64,000 nucleotides of DNA from an uncultured cyanobacterium (GTDB lineage Bacteria > Cyanobacteriota > Cyanobacteriia > Cyanobacteriales > CAWUOF01): contig CAVUSO010000001.1 of the NCBI GenBank assembly GCA_963744145.1, positions 5,088,001 to 5,152,000 on the forward strand. The letters run 5' to 3'. Below are positions 3,611 to 53,300 of this stretch, piece after piece. The number at the start of each line of letters is the position of its first letter. The first letter of the stretch is position 1. Below the pieces are notes generated by a model, which worked only from the letters and a program-made list of their open reading frames with translations, was not told where the DNA came from and searched no databases. The position numbers and the translations under genes were made by a program.

Positions 3611-4606
3611 ATGTCAAAAAAATTTCCCACCAATAGCGATCGAGATGTTTTATCAACATCCCTGGTTGAAGAGTTTCTGAGTTTAGCCAATTTTCAGCGA
3701 GCCTGGGAAAAGGTAGCTTTCAATAAAGGTAGTGCTGGGATTGATGAAGAAACGATCGATAAATTTAAGCAGAATTTAAAAGCAAATCTTTCTCAATTGA
3801 GAGAATCTGTTGCTAATAGTACCTATCAAGCACTTCCCTGTAAACAAGTTTTAATCCCTAAAAATCAAGACAGTTGGCGAGAATTAAGAATTCCGGCTGT
3901 TAGAGATAGAATTGTTCAGCAAGCTTTATTAAATGTTCTTGCTCCAGTCTGGGAAAATAAGTTTTCTAAGTCTAGTTTTGCTTATCGTCCAGATTTATCT
4001 TACTTAGATGCTGTTGAAGAAGTCGCTCGCTGTCGAGATTTAGGTTATGTATGGGTACTGGATGCAGACATCACTCAATATTTTAATAATATTGACCACC
4101 AAAGGTTATTGAGAGAAGTTAGAAAGCACATCGATAATCCAGGGATTCTCTGTCTGATTAAATCTTGGATTTCTACTGAAATCGCCACAGAACAGGGAGT
4201 GATTAGAAATGAAAAAGGAATTCCTCAAGGTGCTGTGATTTCGCCTTTATTAGCTAATATTTACTTGGATGAGTTTGACCATTTTTTCTCTGATTCTGAG
4301 TTGCAGTTAATCCGTTATGCTGATGATTTTTTGGTATTAGCTTACTCCCGAGAGCAAATTGTTCAAGCTTATTCAGAAGTAAACCGATTACTCAAATCAA
4401 TGGGATTAGAGCTACATTCTGAGAAAACTCAGATTACCAGTTTTGAGCGGGGATTTCGATTTTTAGGTCATGGTTTTTTAGAAAATGCTATTTTTCCTTT
4501 GGAGTCTGCTAAAACTCAGCAGAAGTTAGTATCAGGAGAAAGTAATGGTAAAAAAAAAGTCTCCTGCTCGAAACAGAAAAGGAAACGGAAGCGGCATCTG
4601 CGTTAA
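3611..4606 (+). CDS. CRISPR-associated reverse transcriptase (N-terminal part of a split RT-Cas1)
   Basis: Group II intron-like RT motifs KGSAGID, IPAVRDRIVQQA, GIPQGAVISPLLANIYLD, RYADD and FLG; no maturase or HNH tail; lies directly upstream of cas1-cas2. Confidence 0.93.
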   Translation: MSKKFPTNSDRDVLSTSLVEEFLSLANFQRAWEKVAFNKGSAGIDEETIDKFKQNLKANLSQLRESVANSTYQALPCKQVLIPKNQDSWRELRIPAVRDRIVQQALLNVLAPVWENKFSKSSFAYRPDLSYLDAVEEVARCRDLGYVWVLDADITQYFNNIDHQRLLREVRKHIDNPGILCLIKSWISTEIATEQGVIRNEKGIPQGAVISPLLANIYLDEFDHFFSDSELQLIRYADDFLVLAYSREQIVQAYSEVNRLLKSMGLELHSEKTQITSFERGFRFLGHGFLENAIFPLESAKTQQKLVSGESNGKKKVSCSKQKRKRKRHLR

Positions 4607-4638: not shown

Positions 4639-5697
4639 GTGGTTAAATCTGAGGGTTTTGAGGATGCTTCTAAAAATATTTGGAACAAGAACATGGCTAC
4701 TATTTATTTAATTGAACAAGGAACGGCGGTTTATAAAGAAAATTTGCGGTTTGTGATTTGGGTTTCTGATGAAGAAAGAAAAGAAATTCCCATTCGAGAA
4801 GTGGAAAGAATTCTGGTGTTTGGTAATATCCAAGTTTCAACTCAAGCGATAAATGCTTGTCTGGAAGAGAAAATCATCATTCTATTTTTAAACCGGTCCG
4901 GGCACTATAAAGGTCATCTTTGGAATTGGGAACATACCCATTTAGCTAATGAATTATTGCAAATTCAAAAATGGCAAAATATGCCGTTTCAATTACAAGT
5001 TTCTCAAGCAATTGTTCGCGGAAAGTTACTGAACTCGAAGCAATTATTGTTAAGGTTAAACCGGAAACGGAAAGTAGCAGAAGTTGCCCGGGCGATCGCG
5101 GGTATTAGTTCTGATATTAACACTCTGACGACAGTTGATAATCTTGATAGTTTACGGGGTTATGAAGGTATTGGTGCCGCCCGATATTTTCCAGCATTTG
5201 GTAAATTAATTACTAATTCTGGGTTTAAATTTTCTCTACGAAACCGTCAACCTCCCACCGATCCTGTTAATTCTTTATTAAGTTTTGGCTACACCCTTTT
5301 ATTTAATAATGTTTTGAGTTTAATCGTAGCTGAGGGTCTGTCTCCTTATTTTGGTAATTTCCACTATGGAGAAGATAAAAAACCCTATCTGGCTTTTGAC
5401 CTGATGGAAGAGTTTCGATCGCCGATTGTTGATGGTCTGGTGATCAAATTAATCAATAGCTCGGTTTTCAAGCCTACTGACTTTGAATTTGTTGCTAGCA
5501 CACAAGGAGTTTATTTAAGACATTCTGCTAGACGAGGGTTTCTCGAACAGTTTGAAAAACGTATGAATGAAGAAGTTTCTCATCCTGATTTACAATCGCA
5601 AGTTTCTTATCGAGAGGCTATTCAATTGCAGGTTCGACGCTACAAACGTAGTCTGTTACATGGGCTTGACTATGAACCTTTTTTGAGAACGATATAA
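4639..5697 (+). CDS. cas1: CRISPR-associated integrase Cas1 (conserved domain starts at ATG 4693; frame open from 4552)
   Basis: GYEGIGAARYF, DPVNSLLSFGY, GNFH and LAFDLMEEFR motifs. Confidence 0.96.
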   Translation: MVKSEGFEDASKNIWNKNMATIYLIEQGTAVYKENLRFVIWVSDEERKEIPIREVERILVFGNIQVSTQAINACLEEKIIILFLNRSGHYKGHLWNWEHTHLANELLQIQKWQNMPFQLQVSQAIVRGKLLNSKQLLLRLNRKRKVAEVARAIAGISSDINTLTTVDNLDSLRGYEGIGAARYFPAFGKLITNSGFKFSLRNRQPPTDPVNSLLSFGYTLLFNNVLSLIVAEGLSPYFGNFHYGEDKKPYLAFDLMEEFRSPIVDGLVIKLINSSVFKPTDFEFVASTQGVYLRHSARRGFLEQFEKRMNEEVSHPDLQSQVSYREAIQLQVRRYKRSLLHGLDYEPFLRTI

Positions 5698-5713: not shown

Positions 5714-5986
5714 ATGGTGGTTGTAGTGTACGACATTCCCGATGATAAAAGACGCACCAAGTTGTCTAATTTTCTAGAGGGCTATGGGACAAGAGTTCAG
5801 TGGTCTGTGTTTGAGTGTTTTATCACCTTAGACGAGATGCGAGTGTTACATGAGAAGGTGAAAAAACTTGTCAAGTCAGCGGAAGATGATGTTCGTTTCT
5901 ACTGGCTCTCTCCTGAAGCTGGGTCAATGGTTTTAACTATTGGTAGCGAAAAGCCTCAACCTCCCCCAAAGTATTATGTAATCTAG
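5714..5986 (+). CDS. cas2: CRISPR-associated Cas2
   Basis: VVYDIPDDKRR, YGTRVQWSVFEC; directly follows cas1. Confidence 0.96.
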   Translation: MVVVVYDIPDDKRRTKLSNFLEGYGTRVQWSVFECFITLDEMRVLHEKVKKLVKSAEDDVRFYWLSPEAGSMVLTIGSEKPQPPPKYYVI

Positions 5987-6442: not shown

Positions 6443-6921
6443 TTAGAAGGTGGACACTAAGTTTTTCCATATCCTGACTCAAAGTTTTCTTAGTGGTTTT
6501 GGTGTGTAGATACGAGAACTTGTTGATCCATATTTTGCTGTCTACTATCTCAAAGTCTTGCTATATAAAGGTTTTCAAAGATTATGGGAGTTTTGCTATA
6601 CTTACCGACACACCTCTGAGCTTGCTTGGCTGCTTTGGTGTGTCGGTACGAGAATTTGTTAATGTCTGTTTTACATTCTACTAGGTCAAAGTCTTGCAGC
6701 ATAAAGCTTTTAAAGAATTACGGGAGTTTTGCTATGCTTGCCGACACACCTCCGCTGATGCTGAAAACGCCTATTTTCTCGTTGAAGTGTGTCGATGCCT
6801 TGTCAGATATAGGTTTCAGACTGCTTATTTTTGATGCTATATTCATCCTGGCTTGTGCTAAAATGAGGTGTGTCGATTTGACGGCTGAAACTCTCTCTGG
6901 GTATAGGCTGCCAGACGAACT
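6443..6921 (+). promoter_or_regulatory. CRISPR leader with internal ~120-bp tandem duplication
   Basis: Non-coding stretch between cas2 and the first repeat; repeated GTGTGTCG and inverted CGACACAC motifs; candidate extended -10 TGcTAAAAT at ~6856-6864. Confidence 0.75.
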
Positions 6922-9900
6922 CCCTACCGATGGGCTTAAATCGGACTAGTTGGAAACCATTCGGACTTCCCAGGACCTAGGTGCCTTGCAATCCATCCCT
7001 ACCGATGGGCTTAAATCGGACTAGTTGGAAACCCTGTGTCGTGACAATCCATACAGTGACCATTCTCCGTGCCCTACCGATGGGCTTAAATCGGACTAGT
7101 TGGAAACGAGAAATTGCTGCACAAATAATTCCCTAGGGAACCCTACCGATGGGCTTAAATCGGACTAGTTGGAAACTTTCCTAAGAAACGTCCGTCGATG
7201 TCAGTTTTTGACTTTCCCTACCGATGGGCTTAAATCGGACTAGTTGGAAACGACCAAATTGGATAAACCTCTCCAATTTGGTAGTACCCTACCGATGGGC
7301 TTAAATCGGACTAGTTGGAAACGCGCATTAAACACTGCCTTTTGGCAGTTTCCGTTTATGGTGCCCTACCGATGGGCTTAAATCGGACTAGTTGGAAACA
7401 ATGTCATATCGTTCCTGGATGGGCATGGGATTTTTGAGCTGCCCTACCGATGGGCTTAAATCGGACTAGTTGGAAACGTTGCCTTTTGGCAGTTCGAATT
7501 GACGGTGACGCCACCGGCCCTACCGATGGGCTTAAATCGGACTAGTTGGAAACAAAGCGACGCCAACACCAACACAAGAAGCAACATTTTTGACCCTACC
7601 GATGGGCTTAAATCGGACTAGTTGGAAACACAACGACAGGATGTCGCCCGGAAGGGCAGCTAACTTGCCCCTACCGATGGGCTTAAATCGGACTAGTTGG
7701 AAACCTGGCGTCAACGCTGTGCGCGCCTTGTTGTTGGTCGCCCTACCGATGGGCTTAAATCGGACTAGTTGGAAACCTAACTCGTCATACAGACCAGCAG
7801 CCCGGAAGGTTGCTAGCCCTACCGATGGGCTTAAATCGGACTAGTTGGAAACGGAATTATTCCGCTTGTCGTAGTTAAAAATTACACCACCCTACCGATG
7901 GGCTTAAATCGGACTAGTTGGAAACGCCCAGAACCAAAGAAAACATTAACAAAGCGGAAACCCTACCGATGGGCTTAAATCGGACTAGTTGGAAACCCGT
8001 GAACATCGGGGCAGACGTAGGTGTCCCCCCCTTTACCCTACCGATGGGCTTAAATCGGACTAGTTGGAAACACAAGCGGGGCGCCCCTGTGAGTCCTTAG
8101 GGCACTCTTCCCCTACCGATGGGCTTAAATCGGACTAGTTGGAAACTTTTTTGATTGAGCGGATAACACCCTGGCGGGTGCTTCCCTACCGATGGGCTTA
8201 AATCGGACTAGTTGGAAACTTTTTTGGGCAGGACCGGTTTACCGTCTGGCCCCAACCCACCCTACCGATGGGCTTAAATCGGACTAGTTGGAAACCGACC
8301 TCCCTTTCGGTCAACCACCACGGGGCCCTACCGATGGGCTTAAATCGGACTAGTTGGAAACTGCTGGTCTTGGGAACAACCGTAGACGGTGTTCCCCCTA
8401 CCGATGGGCTTAAATCGGACTAGTTGGAAACCTGTAGTCTTGAACATAAGCTGGGTGTTGTGCGACCCTACCGATGGGCTTAAATCGGACTAGTTGGAAA
8501 CTTGCAATCGTCGAGGACCTGCTGCTGTCTGACCCTACCGATGGGCTTAAATCGGACTAGTTGGAAACCCCCAAAACCTCGATAGAGGAGGTAAGGTAGG
8601 GTAGTTTTAACCCCCTACCGATGGGCTTAAATCGGACTAGTTGGAAACCGACCGTCACGCTCCTCAATGATTATGGAGCCCTCCCTACCGATGGGCTTAA
8701 ATCGGACTAGTTGGAAACCAGTCGAGGCTGTGGGGTGCGTTCTTTGCAGCCGTCGAGGCCCTACCGATGGGCTTAAATCGGACTAGTTGGAAACGTCCAA
8801 GTGCCCCCGAGGATATCGCATTGTGCTTTAGTTGCCCTACCGATGGGCTTAAATCGGACTAGTTGGAAACCTTTCGCTTAAGTTGGTGTAGGTAGGGGAA
8901 AACCCTACCGATGGGCTTAAATCGGACTAGTTGGAAACTATATACGATGAGGTGAGGACCATCTCCGCTATTGACCCTACCGATGGGCTTAAATCGGACT
9001 AGTTGGAAACTTTCCGTCAGACGAGCATTCCGTTTCCGCTACCTTCCCTACCGATGGGCTTAAATCGGACTAGTTGGAAACCTGTCGGCAGCGTTGAAAT
9101 TGAAGTATCCAACACACCCCTACCGATGGGCTTAAATCGGACTAGTTGGAAACGTATTGTTGCTAAGGAGCAACTTATAACGTACCCCGCCCTACCGATG
9201 GGCTTAAATCGGACTAGTTGGAAACTCTTCTGGTCAACCACAACAGGGTGTTGCCCTGTTGGACAACCCTACCGATGGGCTTAAATCGGACTAGTTGGAA
9301 ACTATATTAGCTACAAAAAGACTTGCAGCCGAAAAAGCAGAACCCTACCGATGGGCTTAAATCGGACTAGTTGGAAACGACATCGTGTGCGCCCGACTGT
9401 TGGTCGGGGTTACACCCCTACCGATGGGCTTAAATCGGACTAGTTGGAAACACCGTTATGGTGGTGTGGATGTGCTGGTCTGGCAACTGGCCCTACCGAT
9501 GGGCTTAAATCGGACTAGTTGGAAACTGGCAGGTTGGCCCGCCATCGATGCTGTGTACCGCCCTACCGATGGGCTTAAATCGGACTAGTTGGAAACGACA
9601 TCGAACCTTATGATGCCCAGCGGGGCGATGGCAGCCCTACCGATGGGCTTAAATCGGACTAGTTGGAAACTTACAGGCTAGATCAAGTGTCGCGGGTGCT
9701 TAGGACCCTACCGATGGGCTTAAATCGGACTAGTTGGAAACTTTTTAGCAGACATATTTTTTCGTCCTTAGATAAAAGCCCTACCGATGGGCTTAAATCG
9801 GACTAGTTGGAAACGCTCGGTGCACCATGCTTCTGTCACATCTTGGGCCGTGCCCTACCGATGGGCTTAAATCGGACTAGTTGGAAACTTTTACGTATCT

Positions 9901-11362
9901 CTCACTCATCATTGAGTGATATACGCCCTACCGATGGGCTTAAATCGGACTAGTTGGAAACGACTGACTGTTGGAAGTCAGGTACTGTCCCGCCCCTACC
10001 GATGGGCTTAAATCGGACTAGTTGGAAACTTTTTACAGGTTCCCAAGGCTTCCCCGTTGGAGTCCTTCCCTACCGATGGGCTTAAATCGGACTAGTTGGA
10101 AACAGTACAGAAGCAACAGCAACACCGATACCAACAATAACACCACCCTACCGATGGGCTTAAATCGGACTAGTTGGAAACTTTATCGAGACGCCACCGG
10201 TGGCGTCTATATCGTGCGACCCCTACCGATGGGCTTAAATCGGACTAGTTGGAAACTTTATCGGGGGTGGGATGGCAAACGATCACTTTGCCCCTACCGA
10301 TGGGCTTAAATCGGACTAGTTGGAAACGCGAGGTTGCAGTCAGTATCGTACCACTGCACTCCACCCCTACCGATGGGCTTAAATCGGACTAGTTGGAAAC
10401 GTCTGACAGCTCTTGCCGTCAGCGGAACACTCGGTTTCCGCCCTACCGATGGGCTTAAATCGGACTAGTTGGAAACTTTTCTCCTATCCCCGTTAGCCTA
10501 GATCATTAGCTTTACTTCCCTACCGATGGGCTTAAATCGGACTAGTTGGAAACTCTGTCTTTCCGTTAGCGGTCCAGGTACCGCCTACCCTACCGATGGG
10601 CTTAAATCGGACTAGTTGGAAACAGGTTATTGTTGCTACGAAGTTTAAGGAATTGAAAGATCCCTACCGATGGGCTTAAATCGGACTAGTTGGAAACCAA
10701 ACAAAGTCGCAGAAGAATCGAATACAAAGCCCTACCGATGGGCTTAAATCGGACTAGTTGGAAACCCTTGACTACAGCGGCAGCAGCAGCAACACCAAGC
10801 AAAGCCCTACCGATGGGCTTAAATCGGACTAGTTGGAAACGCAATAGCAGCAAGGGCTAGAAGGGCTAGTAGAGCAACACCCTACCGATGGGCTTAAATC
10901 GGACTAGTTGGAAACTTGAAAGCGCCGCTTCAGCTCTGGTGAGCTGTTTGGCCCTACCGATGGGCTTAAATCGGACTAGTTGGAAACGCTGTAAAAGGAC
11001 TCCACGGCCAGCGTTGTTATCCCTACCGATGGGCTTAAATCGGACTAGTTGGAAACCTACGGCAACAGCAACAACAAACAATTTGATAGAAGACCCCTAC
11101 CGATGGGCTTAAATCGGACTAGTTGGAAACTAGAGCATCCCGCTCTTCAATTAGGAGCGTTCCTTTCTTCCCCACGCCCTACCGATGGGCTTAAATCGGA
11201 CTAGTTGGAAACAAGGGACGGTTGGACCAAATGCTGGGAAATCTACCAACCCTACCGATGGGCTTAAATCGGACTAGTTGGAAACGTGTACAGTTCAGCC
11301 TTAATCGCTGCTATTGCAGCTTTAGGCCCTACCGATGGGCTTAAATCGGACTAGTTGGAAAC
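6922..11362 (+). CRISPR. CRISPR array, 61 identical 36-bp repeats and 60 spacers (30-46 bp)
   Basis: Repeat CCCTACCGATGGGCTTAAATCGGACTAGTTGGAAAC with CCGAT/ATCGG stem and GAAAC end; counted manually; orientation from leader position and 3' GAAAC. Confidence 0.98.
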
Positions 11363-11599: not shown

Positions 11600-12934
11600 T
11601 TATCTATCAAAAAGCTGAAGCGTTAAATTGACTAAAAGTTTAGCCAAAGCTTTTACTATTGGGCGATTAGAAACATCTTCTCCGCGTTCCAAATGATGAA
11701 CTTTACCTGTCAAGATCGGATCTTTACTGGTAATTTCGTCATTTTTACCGTTGTAATCACTATAAATAATTGCAATGACTTCTACAGGTTGAGCAAGATT
11801 TTTTTCACAAAGTTCTTTCCATGCAGCTACATCAGCTTCAGTTTTTGCTAAAATAACTGCATGAGTAGCTTGAGACATAATGTCTTTATCCTCATAGATG
11901 GGAATTTTACCACCCACATCAAACAGTAACAGAGAGTTTTTAATTACCTTAAGCTCTCGGGTTTTTGCTTTAGCGAATTCGGGGGTAAATTTTGCCTTAT
12001 ACTCATCTTTTAGTTTTCGAGCTAAATCAGGATAATTAGCAACTGTTTCTGAGTACCAAGATCCATCACCATCGGGACAGCCAGAGACGGTATAAAAATC
12101 ATCAGGAGCATTGTCTAAATTTAAAATTGCTGTCTTTAATCCGTCTCTCAGTACAGTTTTTCCCGTATTTGGCGGTCCACATAAGACGACTTTAACTGTA
12201 GGTTGTGGATCATAATTAATATCAAAAGTTTCGCCAACTTGATAGTCTTTACCATGACTCGTCACTACCACATATCGATCTGATCCTTTATCTCCCTGTT
12301 TAGGATCAAAAACTGCTACACTGCTATACAGATGCGCCACTTTATTAGCGATCGCAAAACTAGCTAAGACTGTTGAACGTCCATTAATTCTAAGCACTTG
12401 TTTACCCCCAGAGAGTTGTCCTGAACTTATTAATTGATCTAATTGTGCTTCTGCATCTAGGAGGATTTGGTCACCATCAACTTTAATCCCATTGTTAATT
12501 TTGGCAATTAGAACATCCTCTTCCCAATAGATTAAAAATGAGGGATGATCGCTAGGATGAGAAGAAACTTGTTTAACTTCACCAGTAATCATGTCAATGC
12601 GACTACCGACAGGATACTCAGAAGCGGTACTTATGACCACAATGTATGCACCTAAGCGGGTATCGGAAACAGCGATCGCACGATACAAATGAGCCAACTC
12701 ATGGGTCAAGGTATAACCACCTAGCACCGAAATTCTGCCATTAATTTTCAGTAAGTTTCCACCTTTAATTTCCTCAGCAGCAATCATGTCCCGCAGTTGC
12801 GTTGCTAGATCCCGCACAATTTGGTCCCCATCAGCGGGAATTGGTTCTCCCTTTGCATTTTTAGCAAAATCTACTTTTAAGGTATCCCCTTCTAACCGAA
12901 TTTGATAGCTAGTCTTGGTTATTCCGGTATTCAT
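11600..12934 (-). CDS. csx3: Tandem Csx3 (Crn3 ring nuclease) domains fused to a P-loop NTPase
   Basis: Two repeats of L(K/R)INGR...AHLY..(I/V)AV.D...Y(I/V)VV; C-terminal GPPNTGKT, CPDGDGSW and DVGGK; likely start ATG 12934. Confidence 0.8.
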   Translation of the reverse strand: MNTGITKTSYQIRLEGDTLKVDFAKNAKGEPIPADGDQIVRDLATQLRDMIAAEEIKGGNLLKINGRISVLGGYTLTHELAHLYRAIAVSDTRLGAYIVVISTASEYPVGSRIDMITGEVKQVSSHPSDHPSFLIYWEEDVLIAKINNGIKVDGDQILLDAEAQLDQLISSGQLSGGKQVLRINGRSTVLASFAIANKVAHLYSSVAVFDPKQGDKGSDRYVVVTSHGKDYQVGETFDINYDPQPTVKVVLCGPPNTGKTVLRDGLKTAILNLDNAPDDFYTVSGCPDGDGSWYSETVANYPDLARKLKDEYKAKFTPEFAKAKTRELKVIKNSLLLFDVGGKIPIYEDKDIMSQATHAVILAKTEADVAAWKELCEKNLAQPVEVIAIIYSDYNGKNDEITSKDPILTGKVHHLERGEDVSNRPIVKALAKLLVNLTLQLFDR

Positions 12935-13040
12935 AGCTCTGATGTCCTGTGCATAAGTGATGAGGTTTATTCTCTCATCCCTATGGAAAGGGAGGTTTCC
13001 AAAGCCTGTTAATTTGGAAAAGGAACTGAGCGGGATTAAC

Positions 13041-14507
13041 ATGATGTTTGGTAAAACCTTTGATTTGTGCCCCAGTGTAGACCTGTTACAAGTGCTAGCA
13101 AGAGGTTCTTTGAGACAAAATTTGCCAAAAGCAGTGCGGTTATGGGTCCTATTGCGATCGCTGTACGGGGATGAAGCTGATCCCATGCGGTTGGATCTGG
13201 GTGAAAATTTTACTTACAGTGAGTGGAACAAACTATTTTTTAATCTAACCAATCATGAACATAAAAATTACAAAATTCCGACTGATCACGATCCCCAGTG
13301 TCATTGTGCTAAAACAATTAGTGATTGGTTATTCGATTCTAATATGGGTTGTGATCCTACAACATGGCAACATTCATTCTTACAACTTTATTCTATGTCT
13401 CAACCCGAATTAGATAGCTTGCTGTTATCGGGAATTATCAATAAAGACGGAGAAAATTCCAACAAGCAAACACCTCTACCAGGTGGTCGTTTATTTGCGA
13501 TCACGAGTAAAAATATTCAATATGATTTTGGAGCATTGGTGGAAATGGGATGGCTAAAAATTCAGAAAATAACAAGTTGTAATAGTAAAAGATGTAAAAC
13601 TCTCTATTGTCGCGTAGAAGATTTTCCGAATCTTGGTATTTATCCCAATCCTCCTATTGCTCAATCGGAAATTAAAGTCAGTAATGTTATTCAAAATGAC
13701 CTGGCTGATTTTTTTAATGATTTCGGAGGTGAAATTAATGGTAAACAGCGCTTCTTTTTAGATATTGAGTATATTGTTCCTGCAAATTTTTCCCAGCAAA
13801 TTAACACCATCAGACAACAACTGAAAGAAGTTTGGCAGCAATCAATAGTACCACCGATAAAAATAACATATATCAGTGCTAGAAATTATCAAAGCTATCA
13901 AGATGAAGGAGAAGAATATATTGTTTATCCAGTTTGCATCTATTATTCCCATCGCGCACCTTATTTATTTAGCTTTGGTCAAGATCCTGTAAATAAAGGT
14001 AAAATTGGCTGGTATGATTATCGATTAGACCGAATACAGAAATTAGAACAACTAACCTGGGATCAAGTTAAAATTGCCGATTTCTCTGAACAGATTTGTC
14101 AGGGAAAAACACCAAGTCATATTGAAGACTTAAGAAATGAAGCGTGGGGATTTGATTTTTACAAACCAAAAAAGTTAATGCTGTTGCGATTCGATCGCTA
14201 TTTTCATAATCGCTATATTGAGGGAACTGAACGGGAAAAAAGATTTCAGAAAATTCCTTACAGATATGCTAAAAGTCTGGTGGAACAAGAACCAATTGAC
14301 AGTGAACTTAAACAGCAAACTTTAGCGATTTTCAAGTCTCGTTCGACCACAGATATTTATTGTCGAGTTAATTATCGTGTAGATGATAATAATGTGATTA
14401 TGAGATTGAGAGCGTGGGGTGCTATGGTAGAAGTATTTTTACCTTGGGAATTGCGATCGCTGATGGCTAAAGAAATTGAAGATAATTACCATCTTTATCA
14501 TAATTGA
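13041..14507 (+). CDS. CRISPR-associated WYL-domain protein (sll7078/TIGR03985-like)
   Basis: LARGSLRQNLPKAVRLWVLLRSLYG N-terminus, VYPVCIYY..RAPYL, WYDYRLDRI, RLRAWGAMVEVFLPWELR. Confidence 0.85.
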   Translation: MMFGKTFDLCPSVDLLQVLARGSLRQNLPKAVRLWVLLRSLYGDEADPMRLDLGENFTYSEWNKLFFNLTNHEHKNYKIPTDHDPQCHCAKTISDWLFDSNMGCDPTTWQHSFLQLYSMSQPELDSLLLSGIINKDGENSNKQTPLPGGRLFAITSKNIQYDFGALVEMGWLKIQKITSCNSKRCKTLYCRVEDFPNLGIYPNPPIAQSEIKVSNVIQNDLADFFNDFGGEINGKQRFFLDIEYIVPANFSQQINTIRQQLKEVWQQSIVPPIKITYISARNYQSYQDEGEEYIVYPVCIYYSHRAPYLFSFGQDPVNKGKIGWYDYRLDRIQKLEQLTWDQVKIADFSEQICQGKTPSHIEDLRNEAWGFDFYKPKKLMLLRFDRYFHNRYIEGTEREKRFQKIPYRYAKSLVEQEPIDSELKQQTLAIFKSRSTTDIYCRVNYRVDDNNVIMRLRAWGAMVEVFLPWELRSLMAKEIEDNYHLYHN

Positions 14508-16499: not shown

Positions 16500-18272
16500 G
16501 TGAGTCAAATATATACTGCGATCACCTTTGCCCCAGTGCAAAGTTTTATTGAAAAATCCCGTAAATTGCGAGATTTATATGGGAGTTCATTTATCTTATC
16601 CTACTTAGCCGTGGAAATTTGTAGAGCAGCTAGGCGCGATCGCAATGTTCCAGAAGATAATCCCCCTCCGGAAATTGACCCGATCATCTCACCAGCACTC
16701 ATCAACGTCACTCAAGGGACGCCTAATCAAATAATTATTCGAGGAGATTACAAAAAAGATAACGCTGAAACCGCCTTTGCTGAAGCTTGGGATGCAGTGA
16801 TAGAAGGTTGTCGTCAGTGGATCGAAGACAATGTTAAAACTTGTGGGCAGTATTACTGGAGGAGGAACTGGGATGGGTGGAAACATCATGCTTGGGAGTT
16901 TTTTTGGGGACAAGGACAAAATATCGGTGAAGCAAGGAATGCGGTTAATGAAGCCAAGCGATCGCGCAATTGGATAGCAATAAACTGGGTAGGAGAAAGT
17001 TCGACTTTATCTGGTGCCGATGGGGTCGCGTGGCCAGGTTTAGGCAAGAATAATCCGAAGTATTCTAATTACCAGCAGCAAAAATTGGAGATTGAAGGTT
17101 TTTATCAGCGACTAAGTTTGAAACTGGGAGAAGCTTTTGCAGAAGCCGCAAATCTCAATGTAGATGAAGAAAAGAAAAAAGAATATGGTGCGGCGTTTGT
17201 TGACCCTGATGAAGAATTAAGCATACCTGAATTAGTGAAGCGGTTAATTACGCATCTAGCGATCGCTGAGAGAATTGTCGCGCGATTGAAACAACCAATT
17301 ACTAAAAGAGAACTTAAAGAAAGGTTGAAGCAACTGAGTGAAGAACTAAATCCCGATAGTTTTAGAGATTTAAGTCGCTTAAAACACAAAAATAAAAAAG
17401 CCCAGACATCAGTCCCAGAATATTATACTGGTTGGTTTCAGGGAGACGGCGATCGCATGGGCGATTTAATGAAAAGACTCTCTAACGAGGACAATCCTGA
17501 AATTGAAGCCCAAGAACTTCATAAATTTAGTCGGGCGATGATGAAATGGGGAGAAAAAAACTTCAAGCCCAACCTGAATGCTTCTAACGGTCGTACAGTT
17601 TATGCTGGTGGTGATGACTTTCTTGGGATTTTTTACCCCTTACCAAAAAATCCGTCACAAAAGCAGCAATTTATCCCTCTGACCGGACAAGATTGCATCA
17701 ATTGGTTTTATGAATTTCCCGCTCTTTGGAAACAGCACAAACAACCCGTAAGTGTTAGTGTTGGATTTGTCTGGGCAGCACCCAATGTACCACAAAGAGA
17801 CGTTTTACAGCACTGCCATTCAGCTGAATCTTCAGCAAAAAAGAGTGGCAAAGACCGTATTGCATTGCGGGTGCTATTTAACGGTGGTACTCATATAGAA
17901 TGGGTATGTCCTTGGTGGTTTTTAGAAGTATTAAAACACTATCAAGATAGAGATGGCAACACTTTAAAATCTTTGTCAAAAGGGAATAAAACTAAACCAA
18001 ACTGGACTCACCTTTATAACGATGTTGCTACTTTAGAATCGCGCCACGCATTTTACGGTAATACTAAAATTGCCCAAGCACTCTTTCAAATTTATTTTCC
18101 TGAGTGCAAGGATTTTATTCACCATGATTATTGGTGGGTACATTGCTATAGAGATGAATTGAGAACGGGCATTTTAGGACATGAACAAAAAAATGCCAAA
18201 AAAGATGTTACTGAACTGTTTAACGAATGGGTTATTAACTTAGCAAAAGTAGGATTTCACTTATGCACATAA
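16500..18272 (+). CDS. cmr2: Type III-B Cas10/Cmr2 lacking HD domain, with intact GGDD palm
   Basis: ITFAPVQSFIEKSRKLRDLYGSS, WFQGDGDRMG, VYAGGDDFLG. Confidence 0.95.
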   Translation: MSQIYTAITFAPVQSFIEKSRKLRDLYGSSFILSYLAVEICRAARRDRNVPEDNPPPEIDPIISPALINVTQGTPNQIIIRGDYKKDNAETAFAEAWDAVIEGCRQWIEDNVKTCGQYYWRRNWDGWKHHAWEFFWGQGQNIGEARNAVNEAKRSRNWIAINWVGESSTLSGADGVAWPGLGKNNPKYSNYQQQKLEIEGFYQRLSLKLGEAFAEAANLNVDEEKKKEYGAAFVDPDEELSIPELVKRLITHLAIAERIVARLKQPITKRELKERLKQLSEELNPDSFRDLSRLKHKNKKAQTSVPEYYTGWFQGDGDRMGDLMKRLSNEDNPEIEAQELHKFSRAMMKWGEKNFKPNLNASNGRTVYAGGDDFLGIFYPLPKNPSQKQQFIPLTGQDCINWFYEFPALWKQHKQPVSVSVGFVWAAPNVPQRDVLQHCHSAESSAKKSGKDRIALRVLFNGGTHIEWVCPWWFLEVLKHYQDRDGNTLKSLSKGNKTKPNWTHLYNDVATLESRHAFYGNTKIAQALFQIYFPECKDFIHHDYWWVHCYRDELRTGILGHEQKNAKKDVTELFNEWVINLAKVGFHLCT

Positions 18273-19546
18273 CATCAACATCTATCGCAGAGGAAAAAAA
18301 ATCAGAAAATCCGCCATTTTCCCACATAATTGTGATTAAACCGTTAGGATTTCTCTATGGCAGTGCTGGAAAGTTTTTATCACCAGAAAACTTAGTCGGA
18401 CGTTCTGGAACTAGCTTTCCTCCTAGTGCTGCCACTTTATCAGGTATTTTTGCGGCTTCCTTACCGCCCGATAAAATCAAAAATTTGCAGTTGGCTGGGC
18501 CTTTTTGGGCATGGAGTCACAATCCGCAAAATTTTTATGTTCCTACTCCTTTTAATTGCTTAGTCAAGGATAAAAAAATTCATCAGCAAATCGCGTGGTT
18601 CCAACAATGTAAAGATCCATGTAAAGGACGATGGTTAGCACAATTTAGGGTGTGGCAAAAGATCAATGGAGAGTTAGTAGGGTTAGATTTATATAAAACA
18701 CCACCTAATGATAAGTTTGAAAGCAAAACTTGGTTACCAATCAGACATTGGAAACGAATAAGACATAAAATAAATAAAGATAAAAACTTATTCAAGGAAA
18801 CCATACCCCAAGAAGAAAATTGCTTTCCTCAACTTAAAGTTGAATCACCCCCTTGGGAATTTGTCCCTCACCTGCACCCGCGACTACAAGAGGATCAAAG
18901 ACGAGTTATAAAGCCTGAAGAAGAACGAGAAAGGGGCAGTTTATTTTTAGAAAACGGAGTGCAATTAAATCCCGATGCGTGCTTAGTTTATTTGTCAAAT
19001 ATTTCTATTCCCGATGGTTGGTATCGGTTTGGTGGTGAAGGTCATTTAGTAGATTTGCGTTGTGAGAATATATGCCAAACTGTTACTGATTTACTCAAAG
19101 AAAAGTTAGGGCACAGTTTTGCATTAATCACTCCAGCAGTATGGGGTTCTAATCGGCTGTCTTACCGCGAACCAATGGTACAGGAAAATCAGGATAAAAA
19201 TGGTGAGTGGGTTCCTGCTTGGAAACGGGAAGCTTTACTGACAGAACGTAGTATCCCTTTCCGTTATCGCTTAGGAAATCCTCAACAATCGGCAGAAGGT
19301 GAGAAACGAAAAAGTAATGAAAAATTGCTGTCTCGCGGACGGTATGCGATGCCAGCAGGCAGTGTTTATGTGTTAGAAAAACCTCTCCCATCTTGGCAAG
19401 AATGGGATAAAGATTGGTTTCCCAAAGAAGGTGTTTCATTTAAACGTTGGGGTTGTGGGCTATCGTTACCTTTGGAAAGCGCACTTGTTCAAGAGTCAGA
19501 TCCACAAACAGCTAATACTTCTGAAATTTCCCTAGGAGATAATTAA
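18263..19546 (+). CDS. cmr3: Type III-B Cmr3 (Cas5 group)
   Basis: LYGSAG..LSPENLVGRSG, WYRFGGEGH, LITPAVWGS, RYAMPAGSVYV, WGCG; position after cmr2. Confidence 0.9.
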   Translation: MHITSTSIAEEKKSENPPFSHIIVIKPLGFLYGSAGKFLSPENLVGRSGTSFPPSAATLSGIFAASLPPDKIKNLQLAGPFWAWSHNPQNFYVPTPFNCLVKDKKIHQQIAWFQQCKDPCKGRWLAQFRVWQKINGELVGLDLYKTPPNDKFESKTWLPIRHWKRIRHKINKDKNLFKETIPQEENCFPQLKVESPPWEFVPHLHPRLQEDQRRVIKPEEERERGSLFLENGVQLNPDACLVYLSNISIPDGWYRFGGEGHLVDLRCENICQTVTDLLKEKLGHSFALITPAVWGSNRLSYREPMVQENQDKNGEWVPAWKREALLTERSIPFRYRLGNPQQSAEGEKRKSNEKLLSRGRYAMPAGSVYVLEKPLPSWQEWDKDWFPKEGVSFKRWGCGLSLPLESALVQESDPQTANTSEISLGDN

Positions 19547-20431
19547 ATGTATCACAAAGCTTATGGAATTATTGAAACCTTAGCCCCTTTACATATTGGA
19601 GCGACAGCAGGAGAAGAAACAGGAAATTTAAACTTGATTTTCCGCGATCAGTTTACCAAAACTGGGATTATTCCCGGTAGTTCAATTCGAGGAAGATTTC
19701 GCGCTGATATGCGATCACAAAATGGGAAAGTTTCTGAATGGTACGGTCACGAAGCGGTTGCAGGACAACAAGATGGCGGCACTACGGAAGCATCAGTTAA
19801 ATTTGAATATGCGTCTTTAGTATGGTTACCTGTTTTTTGTCCAGGTCAACCGATCGTTTGGGTAAGTTGTCCTTCACTGCTAAAACGTTACCAGCAAATC
19901 ACTCAAATTGATCGCAAGATCGATATTCCCAAACCTTACACGGCTGATCATGGATTAGAAGCGCGGTTAGTACCAGGAACAACTGAAAAAGTTTTATTCT
20001 TTAACTTGGGTTTTTTAGGGATTGAACATCAGGAAAATTTAGCCGTTTGGATTCCGATCGGTGCTGACTTACCTAAAAAACAATTAGTTGTTGTTGATGA
20101 TAACGATATCTCTATGCTGCATGATATGGCTTTGTATCGTCAAAGTCGTATTAAGATGCTGGATAATATGAAGAAAGTAGATACAAGAACGGGTGCTTTT
20201 TTTAATGTAGAAGCCTTGCCCGTTGGTAGTATTTTAGTGTTTCCAATAGCATCAAAACAATTCGGCTGGCAACCCTTTGGCAACCTGCAAAAAGATAAAA
20301 ATTATTCTCAAGAACTGTATTTTGGGGGATTAGAATCAATTGGATTTGGTCGGTGTAATGTAACCCTGGTAGGAGAAGCACTTGATCAGCCAGAAAATAT
20401 TCAAGCAACTACACAGGAGGTTAATAGCTAA
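19547..20431 (+). CDS. cmr4: Type III-B Cmr4 (Cas7 group RAMP)
   Basis: PLHIGA, IIPGSSIRGRFR, FGGLESIGFG glycine-rich loop. Confidence 0.95.
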   Translation: MYHKAYGIIETLAPLHIGATAGEETGNLNLIFRDQFTKTGIIPGSSIRGRFRADMRSQNGKVSEWYGHEAVAGQQDGGTTEASVKFEYASLVWLPVFCPGQPIVWVSCPSLLKRYQQITQIDRKIDIPKPYTADHGLEARLVPGTTEKVLFFNLGFLGIEHQENLAVWIPIGADLPKKQLVVVDDNDISMLHDMALYRQSRIKMLDNMKKVDTRTGAFFNVEALPVGSILVFPIASKQFGWQPFGNLQKDKNYSQELYFGGLESIGFGRCNVTLVGEALDQPENIQATTQEVNS

Positions 20432-20955
20432 TGGCTTGGAAATATTACAATTTCGAGGAAAATGGTCAGCAGTTACACAGTTTAGATCAAGTAGCGCAAA
20501 ATCTGGTTTTGGCGGCTAAGGAACGATTGGTGAAGGATGACAGGGGACGGATTGTTTTAGATGACAATGGACAAGGTAAACATTCGCTCAATCAATCCTT
20601 TAAAATGCGGGAAGCAGTTGCTTACGGGTTAGAGCGTTTTTGGGGAGAGCATTTGCGTTTTCAAGGTAAATCGAAGTTTAATTGCGATGAATTTGATAAT
20701 AAATCTAAGTATTGGAAGGATACTTGGGATGCTTTAGTGATAATTATGCGGCAAGGTGGTGTCATTATTCCCAATGATTCAGTTCATATTGACAGACCGA
20801 ATTCTGTGAAGTCAATGGCACAGAAATTATGGGCTTTGGATATTAAAGACCAGCGAATTATCTTGGCTGTTTTGACACAGTTATGCGATTCCATTGTCTG
20901 GTGGACACAGCGGTATAAAGGACCTGGGGATTTAACAATTGATGAAGATAATTAG
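20431..20955 (+). CDS. cmr5: Small subunit Cmr5 (Cas11)
   Basis: KMREAVAYGLERFWGE and LTQLCDSIVWWTQRYK; operon position. Confidence 0.8.
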   Translation: MAWKYYNFEENGQQLHSLDQVAQNLVLAAKERLVKDDRGRIVLDDNGQGKHSLNQSFKMREAVAYGLERFWGEHLRFQGKSKFNCDEFDNKSKYWKDTWDALVIIMRQGGVIIPNDSVHIDRPNSVKSMAQKLWALDIKDQRIILAVLTQLCDSIVWWTQRYKGPGDLTIDEDN

Positions 20956-20966
20956 GAGATTAAATC

Positions 20967-22712
20967 ATGGTAAATATTCCCAATGCAGCTAATCTAATTC
21001 CCTTAATGTTTCAGGCACAAGCGAAAGGGCGATCGCAACTTCAGTACATTGATAGTACCAAAGAAGCCGAGGAACAAGATTCTTACAAATGGGCTGCTCA
21101 GTGGACTGATAAAGCTTATCCCAATCCGCCAGAATTTGGTGATAAGACATCTACAAAAATCTATCAAATCCAGTGGCGTTTTGTTACTAATGGCGGACAA
21201 TATGAAGGAATTATTTTTCCTGCCCTTGGTGCTTTTGGGTTACCTTTTTATCCAGGTAGCAGTATGAAAGGCGCATTTTGTCAAGCTTGCACTGATGACC
21301 AGAAAAAACGCTACCGTTTGACTAAAAATGGTGATGAACCAAGTTTATTACGCTTTCACGGTGGTTATCCGGTGAATGATTGGAAGGAGAATTTAGTAGA
21401 TATTGTTCATCCACAACAAGGATGGCAGATCAAAACATCTAATACCGCTCAAAAACCAGGAGGTGAAACAGGTTTTGCCCTAATTTCTTTATGGCAACCT
21501 ATTATTAAATTTGGAATTTCTAGTTTATTACCAGAAACTAATTGGGATGAAGTTTGGGCAATTTGGGAAAAAGCTTTAGGTTATGGAATTGGCTGTCGTA
21601 CCAGTAGTGGGTATGGGTTGCCAAAAGAGCGTTTAAATGAGAAAGGAGAAGTGGATTGTCCGATCCAAGTTCAGGGGGAAGTTCTCTATAAAGCTCATTT
21701 AAAAGGACAGGGACAAGCGCCAACTTTGATCGATAAAACTCCGGAATTTCGCCCAAATATTTTTAGGGGAAGTTTGCGGAGTCATGCTTTGCGGATTTTT
21801 GGAGGATTAACGAATTCAAAAACCGCAGAAAAGTTAGTAGAAAATTTATTTGGTGGAGTGAATGATGGTGGAACTCAGGGATTATTAACTTGCGTGTTTC
21901 AATCCTCATCTTTAAAACTAGGTGAGTTTACTGATGGATATAACGAGCCAACTTACAAAGTAGCTGGAGAATTACGTTGGTTATTGATGTCACCCCGTCA
22001 ATTGGATGAAAACAAAAAGGAGGTACTGAAAAGGTTATTAAGGGCTTTAATGCAGTTTGCAATGTTATTTGGTGGTTTTGGTAAGTCGTGGCGACGGGTC
22101 GATCATCGCCTATTTCCCTATGAATATAAAAATCATAGAGGTCAATTTGAAAACTACTACGATCGTCATCAACCACTGATTGGCTGTCACTGGGAGTGGA
22201 ATAGAAATTCCCTAATAAATGCGACTAATATTCCCTCTTTGAATCGCGTTGCGTCGTTTATTAATAAACTGAGAGAAATTGCTGGTGAATGGATGCACCT
22301 AAATAACTTAGAACCGAATGAAAATCAATATTCTCCTTGGCGAGAATCTTGGCATCCTGAGACTGTGCAAGTATGGGGACGATTGGCTGATGGAGCTGAT
22401 CATTGTGTTGCTATTAAATGGCTTCATGAAGCTTATCAAAGAGCTGATCGTCGTACCGGAATACCTGAGTTAAGGATTAAAAAAACTTCTGTTACTGGTT
22501 GCATAAATAAAATTAGTAGGCTTTGGCTTCGGATGTATCCAGTAGTTCGGCTGGTAGACGATCTAAACAATCCAGGGAAGAAAATCCCAAAGCTGACTCC
22601 TAATTATCTGGAACTATTGACTATTTTTCCTGATGATTCAGATGATTTCAATAATTTTGTCAATTTTCTCGATTCAGAGCCAGAAGGGTTTCGACAGCTT
22701 TGGTCTCTTTGA
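20967..22712 (+). CDS. cmr6: Cmr6-Cmr1 double-RAMP fusion (III-B variant)
   Basis: Two RAMP modules: YPGSSMKG...GIGCRTSSGYG and EFRPNIFRG...GGFGKSWRR. Confidence 0.85.
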   Translation: MVNIPNAANLIPLMFQAQAKGRSQLQYIDSTKEAEEQDSYKWAAQWTDKAYPNPPEFGDKTSTKIYQIQWRFVTNGGQYEGIIFPALGAFGLPFYPGSSMKGAFCQACTDDQKKRYRLTKNGDEPSLLRFHGGYPVNDWKENLVDIVHPQQGWQIKTSNTAQKPGGETGFALISLWQPIIKFGISSLLPETNWDEVWAIWEKALGYGIGCRTSSGYGLPKERLNEKGEVDCPIQVQGEVLYKAHLKGQGQAPTLIDKTPEFRPNIFRGSLRSHALRIFGGLTNSKTAEKLVENLFGGVNDGGTQGLLTCVFQSSSLKLGEFTDGYNEPTYKVAGELRWLLMSPRQLDENKKEVLKRLLRALMQFAMLFGGFGKSWRRVDHRLFPYEYKNHRGQFENYYDRHQPLIGCHWEWNRNSLINATNIPSLNRVASFINKLREIAGEWMHLNNLEPNENQYSPWRESWHPETVQVWGRLADGADHCVAIKWLHEAYQRADRRTGIPELRIKKTSVTGCINKISRLWLRMYPVVRLVDDLNNPGKKIPKLTPNYLELLTIFPDDSDDFNNFVNFLDSEPEGFRQLWSL

Positions 22713-51333: not shown

Positions 51334-52974
51334 CTATACCCTATCTCCCCTATTCGTTAGTTGTCGTAGTCGATCAGCAAGAAATGCTTTCTCGACAGAA
51401 TCACCAAGACGCTTTATCCCTGCCTTGATCTCTTCGGGATTATTACTCTGCATCAATTTGTTAATCTCATCAAGAGGGACTTGTGACATAGGTGGACGAA
51501 CGTTAAAGCATTCCTCAATAATCGTATCGAATGTAGCGCCAAATGTTTGAATATCAGGATTTTTGACTTGAATTTTTCCGGCTTCGTTTTTGCTAAAAAT
51601 AAAAACTTTGTCTCTCTGCATATCTGAGGGGACAAAAGGCGAGTGTGTTGTCAGCAAGCACTCTTGTTCAGGAGCTTTTGAAGATGCTCGGCGATCGCCA
51701 TTTTCTGTAGGCAGATCGAGTATTCGGGAAATAAACTTCACTGACCATTGGGGATTGAAATGGGACTCAGGCTCATCCAGTAAAAAAAGCACATTAGTAG
51801 ATGACAACATACAGAACGTTCCCAGAATCTGCACAAGCTGATGTTCGCCATCAGAAAGCCATTCATAGCCTACCTCTTTACCAGTCCCTTTAGCTTTAAA
51901 TATAACCCGTTTAAATCCGAAGACCTTATCCTCATCTTGAGGTTCTGGAAGACGTGAATCAAATTTTCTTTCTCTAGTCTCTTTCCAAAAGCGCTTGCGT
52001 GTTTCCCTTGGAAGGGCTAAGTCATTTAACATTGCGAGCTTGTGGAATGACGAATATAAATCGAGGGTGTTGTTCCAAAAGGCTCGAAACGCTTCCCTGG
52101 TCTGGTCATTGATCCAATAGTCAAAGGTGTAAGTTTCTGTCTTGTCGTCATAGGTGTAGCAAGTGGCACAGCGTTTGAGATGGTCGAGATATTTTTCCAG
52201 TTCTTTAGTGAGTTGTATTCCTTTTCGGCTGCTTTGTGAACCTCCCCTGCTGAGAAGTTTGGGAACGGCACTATGTGCCAGTTGGACTATACAACGAAAT
52301 GAATGCAGGTCTTGTAGTTGTGCGTCTCGTAGCAAAGCCTCCCACTGGACAACATCACCCAACAAAAGGTTTGCCAAGAGAACCTCAAGACGCGTTCCAT
52401 AATCAATCAGCATTAATCTAGTATCAAAAATAAGTTGATCGCGCATCGCTGCCTTCAATGCTCTTGTGCCCACGTCGTCTGCATATCCACTACGGCTAAC
52501 TAGGAATGGTAGACTGAGCGTTTCGTTATCGCCTGATGTATAGCCAATCACCATTTCAGGCAATAATGTACGAGTCTTAGGATCATTTATGTCGCAGTCT
52601 ATCCAGTCGTATTCCTCTTCATCTCTCCGCTCGATCACAAGAGTTGGACGCTTTCTACCACTAGCTTTTTGTAAAATGCGGATGCGGACAGGTAGCTGCT
52701 CATCCTCTGGGTAAATGAGGTACTCAAGCTCGAATTCCAGGTCAGGATTTCCTTCAAGACGTTCTTCTTTAGGAATACATTTGTGAAACACACATTGAAA
52801 AATCTCTACTAGTACCTGTAAAAACTGAGATTTACCTGCACCATTCAGCCCAATTAGACATAAAGGATCGAACGCGGAATAGTCACTCAATGGACTTCGT
52901 AGCCGTAAGTCAAGTCCATCAAATAATCCACGACGGGTTTTATCTGAAATGATGTGAACTCTTAAAAGTTTCAT
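51334..52974 (-). CDS. Restriction-system-associated ABC/AAA ATPase
   Basis: GLNGAGKS, GYTSGDNE, LSDGEHQ, LLDEPESHFNPQW, TTHSPF. Confidence 0.88.
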   Translation of the reverse strand: MKLLRVHIISDKTRRGLFDGLDLRLRSPLSDYSAFDPLCLIGLNGAGKSQFLQVLVEIFQCVFHKCIPKEERLEGNPDLEFELEYLIYPEDEQLPVRIRILQKASGRKRPTLVIERRDEEEYDWIDCDINDPKTRTLLPEMVIGYTSGDNETLSLPFLVSRSGYADDVGTRALKAAMRDQLIFDTRLMLIDYGTRLEVLLANLLLGDVVQWEALLRDAQLQDLHSFRCIVQLAHSAVPKLLSRGGSQSSRKGIQLTKELEKYLDHLKRCATCYTYDDKTETYTFDYWINDQTREAFRAFWNNTLDLYSSFHKLAMLNDLALPRETRKRFWKETRERKFDSRLPEPQDEDKVFGFKRVIFKAKGTGKEVGYEWLSDGEHQLVQILGTFCMLSSTNVLFLLDEPESHFNPQWSVKFISRILDLPTENGDRRASSKAPEQECLLTTHSPFVPSDMQRDKVFIFSKNEAGKIQVKNPDIQTFGATFDTIIEECFNVRPPMSQVPLDEINKLMQSNNPEEIKAGIKRLGDSVEKAFLADRLRQLTNRGDRV

Positions 52975-53300
52975 TTCTTAGTCCGAACGAAACACATCGT
53001 CCGCTCCTCTCGATCAAATATCTGCGTAAGACTTGGCTCGGCTTCACTCAGAAGTGCAAACAGAATGTTCTTCAGTGAATCGTAATCATCAGGAAGGTTT
53101 TTGCGGAGTTCATCAAATGAAAACCTGTCCTTGGGTAATTGGTGAATTGCTTCCTTAACAGATTCTTCGGTCATCTTGGTCATAGTTGTTTTTTTAGGAG
53201 TTAGGGATCTATTTGGTTGCGCTGGTTGTGCTGATCGTTCAACGCGAATCCGTTCTAACAGCACCGATGCTGGTTCATCGTTGGGGTCTTGGGATACCAA
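52971..53300 (-). pseudogene. C-terminal remnant of a type I restriction specificity subunit (HsdS-like)
   Basis: LVSQDPNDEPASVLLERIR is typical of HsdS tails; no upstream TRDs; overlaps the ATPase start. Confidence 0.75.

Follow-up and report, generated by a model that had tools for sequence, protein, structure and literature searches.

Overlapping, diverged spacers of a cyanobacterial type III-B CRISPR array suggest repeated capture of RNA from one foreign gene family

The locus described here lies in a stretch of 64,000 nucleotides (nt), called the window below, from an uncultured cyanobacterium (GenBank assembly GCA_963744145.1, contig CAVUSO010000001.1, positions 5,088,001 to 5,152,000 of the forward strand). 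The window contains a CRISPR array, made of regular identical repeats and unique spacers, beside type III-B (Cmr) effector genes. Several spacers of this array overlap, when their reverse complements are translated, into a single peptide segment that we call the tile. Taking the evidence together, we consider it probable that the array repeatedly captured, in a manner dependent on a reverse transcriptase (RT), the sense RNA of a diverged and unsampled foreign gene family. All positions are those of the window, and the spacers are numbered from the leader.

6922..11362, + strand: CRISPR array with 61 identical 36-nt repeats and 60 different spacers of 30-46 nt; spacer 1 (sp1) is leader-proximal

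Spacers that overlap at the peptide level

An earlier, sequence-only reading of this DNA proposed that six spacers (sp6, sp8, sp11, sp20, sp34 and sp45) tile one segment of a Cys-containing protein. The limits and the peptides of the six are exact, with one open reverse-complement frame each, and the observation as a whole is partly confirmed: five of the six (sp34, sp11, sp45, sp8 and sp6) are solid, being linked beyond chance, sp20 is unproven, and at least one member, sp18, had been missed.

7323..7363, + strand: sp6, tile member; peptide TINGNCQKAVFNA on the - strand; BLOSUM score 43 to sp8
7478..7517, + strand: sp8, tile member; peptide GGVTVNSNCQKA on the - strand
7705..7740, + strand: sp11, tile member; peptide DQQQGAHSVDA on the - strand
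8220..8259, + strand: sp18, additional tile member; peptide GWGQTVNRSCPK on the - strand; starts with TTTTTT
8362..8395, + strand: sp20, claimed member; peptide NTVYGCSQDQ on the - strand; its link to sp34 is within the null
9379..9415, + strand: sp34, tile member; peptide CNPDQQSGAHDV on the - strand
10182..10220, + strand: sp45, bridging tile member; peptide SHDIDATGGVSI on the - strand

The chance level was set by 40 shuffles of all array spacers, which gave a maximum peptide score of 26-35. In the resulting all-versus-all comparison, two strong pairs beat every shuffle: sp6 and sp8, with a BLOSUM score of 43 and 15 identical nt in common, and sp11 and sp34, which score 44 in the best frame and 38 in the claimed frame (hand count). 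The bridge between these pairs is sp45, whose first half matches sp11 and sp34 and whose second half matches sp8, in one frame and with a score of at least 20 to each; 56 shuffled spacers produced such a double link in 0.9% of 1000 trials (family-wise p about 0.009). The additional member sp18 scores 32 with sp8, at a null expectation of 0.01 per array for scores of at least 30, and uses different codons in four of the six residues identical between them (by eye). The link of sp20 to sp34, by contrast, is at chance level: it comprises five residues with a score of 20, which a mean of 2.4 of the 56 shuffled spacers reach. Tile scores of sp2 (24) and sp36 (21) are borderline.

The overlapping tile spacers share 62-79% nucleotide identity and have differing ends, and they are therefore independent acquisitions rather than duplicates, as had been held from the sequence. 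The further claim that they sample one coding segment in diverged variants is likewise supported. That the similarity would be largely invisible at the nucleotide level was overstated, for repeat finding picked up sp6 and sp8, and sp8 and sp45 have 11 identical nt. The members occupy positions 6, 8, 11, 18, (20), 34 and 45 of the 60 and are interleaved with unrelated spacers, which means that acquisition was spread over the history of the array. The overlaps show a segment that appears to be under purifying selection in several diverged lineages.

Relatedness across the whole array

Tiling is a property of the whole array and is not special to one segment. Fifteen of the 1770 same-strand nucleotide pairs score at least 10, compared with a mean of 1.6 in 30 shuffles and 3 when the partner is reversed; for peptides, 14 pairs score at least 30, compared with 0.55 in shuffles and 1 with a reversed partner. 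The sequence-only reading had singled out the one segment described above; the same pattern recurs in at least four further groups of spacers.

sp10 7630-7668, sp19 8296-8325 and sp32 9226-9266: group of overlapping, diverged spacers
sp29 9011-9045 and sp48 10401-10440: group of overlapping, diverged spacers; sp50 and sp26 are less sure members
sp24 8649-8682 and sp58 11131-11176: group of overlapping, diverged spacers
sp22 8502-8532 and sp25 8719-8758: group of overlapping, diverged spacers
sp9 7554-7593, sp44 10104-10145, sp53 10766-10804, sp54 10841-10879 and sp57 11057-11094: low-complexity hydrophobic group

The other spacer groups offer 15-19 informative residues; in the four that overlap, divergence falls strongly on the third codon position, and Cys-containing peptides occur in several of them. 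On the target-sense strand the low-complexity group is rich in V, A, G and L and resembles signal peptides or membrane segments; its similarity is partly low-complexity (GCAACA-type repeats).

Relatedness of this extent is not generic, because three related arrays, with 28, 29 and 16 spacers, contain 0, 0 and 1 such pairs. No family common to this array was found among the 93 spacers of six related arrays (maximum 32; null maxima 28-35). A Simpson-type estimate from the pair counts gives an effective target space of roughly 4-7 kb, a figure that measures the concentration of sampling and not genome size.

Coding strand and composition of the targets

Mismatches between related spacers fall at codon position 3 in 28 of 42 cases for the five strongest pairs (P=1e-5) and in 54 of 104 when all 13 pairs are counted (P=7e-5). 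Codon phase alone is blind to the strand, since one opposite-strand frame has the same third positions. The reverse-complement frames contain 0 stops in 208 codons, these frames having been partly chosen for openness, and the phase-matched frame of the opposite strand has stops in sp20 and sp48. Replacements are conservative (V/I, S/T, A/S) in the chosen frame and not in the other (by eye). The changes in the tile cluster in few codons, which fits locally relaxed or diversifying residues. These sequence features support the view that the targets are coding, with a sense strand that would be the reverse complement of the strand transcribed from the array.

The direction of the array follows from its flank and from a relative: it is read on the + strand, with sp1 as the youngest spacer, because a conserved leader precedes repeat 1 and because, in a Nostoc relative, the last repeat, counted away from cas2, has a degenerate 3' end.

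6772..6921, + strand: conserved leader, directly upstream of repeat 1

Over its 150 nt, this leader can be aligned with the sequence preceding the first repeat in five related cyanobacterial arrays, at a mean column identity of 76%. The leader includes a promoter-like site (6815-6843, + strand), the count of such sites being not above that in shuffles. The repeat terminates in GGAAAC, which resembles the tag-giving ends of other type III repeats. As the coding sense is opposite to the transcribed strand of the array, the CRISPR RNAs (crRNAs) would be antisense to the message; the orientation proposed from the sequence thus agrees with the reading direction given by the leader and the degenerate repeat.

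The composition of the spacers differs from that of the host. Their overall GC content is 50%, that of the tile codons is 57% and that of the host is 40%; at third codon positions (GC3), the tile reaches 65% vs 30% for the host.

Reverse transcriptase and T runs at the start of spacers

The adaptation genes stand upstream of the array and on its strand.

3611..4606, + strand: RT gene, 331 amino acids (aa), Pfam RVT_1 1.7e-41; a separate gene that ends 33 nt before cas1
4639..5697, + strand: cas1, Pfam Cas_Cas1 2.6e-87, TIGR00287 2.1e-85
5714..5986, + strand: cas2, Pfam CRISPR_Cas2 6.3e-22

The RT scores 299.8 bits with the NCBIfam model for group II intron RT/maturases (cut-off 300) and 347.9 bits with the PADLOC model for CRISPR-linked RTs, matches the RT half (4-307 of 617) of the RT-Cas1 model as well, and retains an intact catalytic YADD motif at residue 236. 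The sequence-only reading had invoked RT-Cas1; here the RT is not fused, and RT and cas1 are two separate open reading frames (ORFs; 3611-4606 and 4639-5697). The order RT-cas1-cas2-array is the same in two related plasmid loci (Nostoc and Gloeothece).

Ten of the 60 spacers start with TTT, in runs of 3-6 nt (P=7e-8), while the other homotrimers at either spacer end have 0-2 occurrences each. Related arrays present a weaker TTT excess (9 of 93 spacers, P=0.0014).

sp4, sp17, sp18, sp29 and sp39: TTT directly after the repeat, first bases 7177, 8147, 8220, 9011 and 9742
sp41, sp43, sp45, sp46 and sp49: TTT directly after the repeat, first bases 9889, 10030, 10182, 10257 and 10477

On the target-sense strand, the T run is a run of A at the 3' end, and its polarity agrees with the coding sense in sp18, sp45 and sp29. 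According to the passages covered of a study on an RT-Cas1 system, RNA protospacers receive 3' tails of 1-6 nt of deoxyadenosine (dA), which end up as non-coded A at the spacer-repeat junction, and such A-rich junctions separate RNA-derived from DNA-derived spacers (Mohr et al., bioRxiv 10.1101/2023.09.01.555893). The TTT bias matches this published tail of RNA-derived spacers, and the spacers that carry it here may be RNA-derived too. A YADD-bearing RT beside cas1, together with this signature, supports a probable part of the RT in adaptation.

RNA structure of the spacers

Compared with dinucleotide shuffles, the spacers form more stable folds (mean z -0.59, P=0.003): 10 of the 60 have a z below -2, vs about 1.4 expected and 0 of 29 in one control array. 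Tile members are among these structured spacers. A GC-rich palindrome in sp45, with an 8-bp stem and a 4-nt loop, is predicted to form a hairpin of -13.6 kcal/mol, and the arms of this palindrome are the parts identical to sp11 and sp8; the 15-nt block common to sp6 and sp8 is itself a small hairpin. Other hairpin spacers are sp5 (7252-7286), sp41 (9889-9925), sp33 (9303-9342) and sp17 (8147-8183), of which sp5 and sp41 are almost entirely inverted repeats.

The hairpin-rich spacers may reflect a structured source RNA or fold-back products of complementary DNA (cDNA) synthesis, fold-back priming having been observed in vitro, as described in the passages covered (Mohr et al., bioRxiv 10.1101/2023.09.01.555893). 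The acquisition hot spot may owe its existence to hairpin fragments that are stable, or to such priming.

Searches for the source

The tile was turned into a hidden Markov model (HMM), which in six-frame translation of the window matched the array alone. When all spacers were compared by blastn-short with the remainder of the window, none of the matches listed exceeded 17 nt. Searched with blastn (word 11, E up to 1), the whole array had no match in 50,697 phage records and matched 6 records among 72,556 plasmids, none of them a protospacer; all six are related CRISPR arrays. Two degenerate DNA patterns were run against 185,579 species genomes: the DQQ..H..DA part was found in none of them, and the V..N.NCQKA part at 11 loci, all of them chance as judged by the flanking translation. 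These scans did not return the window's own array, its genome being outside that collection or masked there.

The protein searches used profiles without sp6 and sp18, because MAFFT mis-tiled the peptides whenever sp6 was included. In a set of 5.8 billion protein clusters, the 'longer' search, in which the natural stop-to-stop ORF holding sp8 in frame came first, yielded 164 candidates and none with E up to 10, and the 'near' search yielded no candidate with three 5-mers in common. A profile search of 1.84 billion representatives returned 6 matches with E up to 0.001, none credible. Five are tandem-repeat proteins matched in 5-16 stretches and were judged chance; the sixth (P0002, 82 aa) is a spurious ORF through a related CRISPR repeat, with FQLIRFNPIGR present three times, an example of how such arrays get mis-annotated as genes. 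Rfam recognised no family in the array or the leader. A multicopy host gene family, which the sequence-only reading had named as a finding that would speak against it, was seen neither in the window nor in the species-genome scan nor in the protein libraries, as far as these collections reach.

Interpretation and alternative explanations

In the explanation that we favour, an adaptation module with an RT would feed the memory of a type III-B (Cmr) system. Over the period spanned by spacers 45 to 6, sense RNA of a single foreign family of protein-coding genes would have been captured repeatedly; within it, about 110 nt (about 36 codons with two Cys) would have been sampled five to seven times, each capture coming from a variant that differs by 20-40% at the nucleotide level. 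RNA fragments would gain a short 3' dA tail and integrate at the leader end, and spacers would persist only in the orientation that yields crRNA complementary to the message. Cmr would cut the target RNA, and Cas10 would signal to the Csx3/WYL accessory proteins. Repeated sampling would then mean that the effective target space is small and contains a hot spot of acquisition, for which an abundant, hairpin-rich RNA could be the cause, and to which renewed infection by diverged relatives no longer matched by the old spacers would add. The source would be an element absent from the searched libraries, with either an RNA or a DNA genome.

Several points weigh against this explanation. In the tile taken alone, the excess of position-3 changes is weak (16 of 34, P=0.067), and the probable strand of the tile is called from one stop in the weak member sp20 and from the more conservative replacements. 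The homologous spacers of sp45 and sp29 (sp8 and sp48, respectively) have AA at the place of the tail, so that in sp45 and sp29 the template may have supplied these A's, and an end preference rather than a tail could underlie the TTT bias. The RT is unfused, and RNA capture by this split module is putative. A cas6 gene is without a match in the window. The word 'foreign' rests on composition and on absence from the libraries, no protospacer having been found; the search profile was chimeric, with about 25 informative columns diluted by repeat-derived residues, and a single-copy relative at about 60% identity could lie below the E-value cut.

A narrower explanation is that the source was an RNA replicon, an RNA phage or other small RNA element, whose genome or plus strand was captured directly; we hold this to be possible but rather unlikely. 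The RT-linked adaptation with its dA-tail-like signature, a GC3 far from that of the host, the lack of a DNA match in the phage, plasmid and genome collections, the folding of the spacers, the strong divergence of the variants and the small Simpson-type target space (about 4-7 kb) would all agree with it, and the RT-encoding III-B arrays of Roseiflexus, directed at partiti-like RNA phages and viroid-like RNAs in the passages covered of the papers cited below, set a precedent. The data fit the mRNA of a DNA element equally well, however; no peptide resembling an RNA-dependent RNA polymerase (RdRP) or a capsid protein was recognised among the spacers, and the absence of DNA rests on two strict patterns and on blastn of phage and plasmid records. 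The most detailed picture of this kind treats the array as a fossil record left by a small RNA replicon of a filamentous cyanobacterium, one that is unsampled, fast-diverging and GC-richer and whose structured sense RNA, encoding a secreted Cys-containing protein, was repeatedly captured via dA tailing by the split RT/Cas1-Cas2; we consider it unlikely. Alternatively, a single element might carry one gene for a repetitive, Cys-containing surface or secreted protein, and the apparent variants could be internal repeats or paralogues of that gene. Many overlapping, differing spacers could then stem from one encounter, and a repeat-rich gene, by enlarging the target of one module, would account for the hot spot. 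Cys-containing, G/N/D/T-rich peptides are encoded by several of the other spacer groups too, and the best library matches of the profile, though judged chance, are tandem-repeat proteins. The interleaving of the members with unrelated spacers speaks against an origin from such repeats, no spacer connects the end of the tile back to its start, and the other groups do not resemble the tile significantly, which makes this origin distinctly unlikely in our view. The sequence-only reading, which is partly supported overall, had pointed to a small genome, such as that of an RNA virus or an inovirus-like phage, as a possible source; the tile would look alike with a hot spot inside a larger element or with internal repeats of one gene.

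Two further origins have much less in their favour. Spacers copied from abundant transcripts of a multicopy host gene family would have a parallel in Marinomonas, whose RT-Cas1 takes spacers from highly expressed genes of its native host, according to the passages covered (Mohr et al., bioRxiv 10.1101/2023.09.01.555893). The GC3 of 65% vs 30% in the host and the lack of a match in the window or in the protein libraries indicate that a host gene family is an unlikely source. The remaining 59.5 kb of the window and the species-genome scan yielded no match either, and the protein libraries, which include sequenced cyanobacteria, no credible one; uniform targeting orientation would moreover be self-toxic, and this origin is very improbable, being largely refuted.

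Variation produced by a diversity-generating retroelement on one variable region is still harder to reconcile with the array, and we give it next to no weight. The variable regions of these retroelements have a length of about 100 nt and particular codon habits, and the tile does have a similar length, with abundant Asn codons and with replacements concentrated in few codons. The many synonymous third-position changes (54 of the 104 mismatches are at position 3), the A-rich runs that are identical between variants (such as the 15-nt block of sp6 and sp8) and the like divergence in four unrelated spacer groups point the other way; such a retroelement would be expected to vary only sites that are adenine in its template repeat, mostly at codon positions 1 and 2. 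Capture of sense RNA from a foreign gene family is the explanation that we hold to be more probable.

Effector genes and neighbourhood

Genes for photosystem proteins and others (psbC, psbD, ycf4 and sucrose synthase) identify the window as part of a cyanobacterial chromosome. Beyond the array, it carries accessory and effector genes.

11600..13186, - strand: Csx3-AAA accessory protein, PADLOC Csx3-AAA 1.6e-108
12957..14507, + strand: HTH-WYL / TIGR03985 CRISPR-associated protein, NCBIfam and PADLOC matches
16500..22712, + strand: type III-B effector genes cas10/cmr2, cmr3, cmr4, cmr5 and cmr6, PADLOC and NCBIfam matches

PADLOC scores are 5.8e-192 for Cas10b, 2.6e-52 for Cmr5 and 2e-191 for Cmr6, and Cmr3 and Cmr4 were also matched. 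The product of cas10/cmr2 has the cyclase motif GGDD at residue 370; an N-terminal HD motif was not seen on reading the sequence by eye, and a script scan printed nothing either way. Pfam, NCBIfam and PADLOC scans gave no match to cas6 among the scanned ORFs of the window. This gene may be elsewhere in the genome, or a host RNase may process the crRNA instead; the module without cas6 resembles a cyanobacterial (Synechocystis) III-B variant said to mature its crRNA with a host RNase.

An IS4 transposase gene is located upstream of RT-cas1-cas2, on the same strand. The interval between cas2 and the array is unusually long (about 935 nt) and holds, upstream of the conserved leader, a 136-nt unit in two tandem copies with 77% identity (6478-6749). 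Other genes of the window follow the effector genes.

23382-25121, - strand: 579-aa protein with a C-terminal CHAT protease domain, just past cmr6; no PADLOC match
25431-26108, - strand: fragment with a filamentous-haemagglutinin-type TPS domain, after the CHAT protein
51334-52974, - strand: PtuA-like AAA ATPase (Septu-type, 1.6e-46), overlapping the next fragment
52971-53300, - strand: 109-aa fragment of a type I restriction specificity subunit
54005-56692 and 59933-63049, + strand: ABC transporter and LanM-type class II lanthipeptide synthetase (DUF4135 + LANC_like)

No match of the tile HMM resembling a lanthipeptide precursor was found in the window.

Relation to known systems and significance

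The locus belongs to the known RT-linked type III-B kind. In type I systems, acquisition hot spots and primed adaptation bring in many spacers from one small region of an invader; priming requires a pre-existing, partly matching spacer and the DNA-targeting Cascade/Cas3, and is not known to occur in type III.

The comparisons that follow draw on passages of the papers cited. In the type III-B system of Marinomonas mediterranea (Mohr et al., bioRxiv 10.1101/2023.09.01.555893), as here, a group-II-intron-like RT works with Cas1 and Cas2 beside a III-B effector, and the dA-tail junctions described for it may have their counterpart here in the A/T run, 3-6 nt long and specific to one end, of 10 of the 60 spacers. 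Unlike in Marinomonas, the RT is separate here, and the window showed neither a Cas6 domain nor a cas6 gene. In Marinomonas the spacers were acquired in the laboratory from host RNA, in either of the two orientations and with no region favoured, whereas the present array is a natural one with uniform orientation and strong hot spots. Roseiflexus sp. RS-1 is, like our host, a filamentous phototroph with RT-linked III-B arrays, and many spacers of its arrays, accumulated over years, are directed against partiti-like RNA phages and viroid-like circular RNAs (Neri et al., 10.1101/2022.02.15.480533; Lee et al., 10.1101/2022.07.19.500677). The Roseiflexus targets were found in metatranscriptomes at 0-1 mismatch, whereas the spacers described here are linked by mutual overlap at 62-79% nucleotide identity.

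Next to Roseiflexus, the other close parallel in nature is Arthrospira platensis (Silas et al. 2017, PMC5513706), a cyanobacterium with a III-B array and an RT fused or adjacent to cas1. Its 'enigmatic' III-B spacers matched almost nothing anywhere, and the only III-B matches were on a single site of one gene; more generally, the sources of RT-linked cyanobacterial III-B spacers were essentially not found, according to the passages covered. These authors clustered near-identical spacers, and analyses of peptide-level tiling, end composition and codon phase are not reported in the same passages. Nowhere in the literature passages covered by a non-exhaustive search did we find diverged variants described as tiling at the peptide level inside a single array.

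The value of the present array lies in the fact that its spacers point to one another: about 36 codons, which are not host-like, can be reassembled from the overlaps. The tile can serve as a protein-level probe for metatranscriptomes and viromes, where it would be missed by nucleotide matching at 0-1 mismatch, and it offers a handle for finding a still unknown parasite of the cyanobacterium. Judging by the T run, the 3' dA tail by which RNA-derived spacers are recognised in the laboratory may be readable in a natural array, where it would also reveal the captured strand. Finally, if an RNA element were the source, an RNA replicon would be linked to a cyanobacterial host, a link that we did not meet in the passages of the literature covered, and the overlapping spacers would be the first partial coding 'contig' to come from the dark-matter targets of RT-linked cyanobacterial type III arrays.

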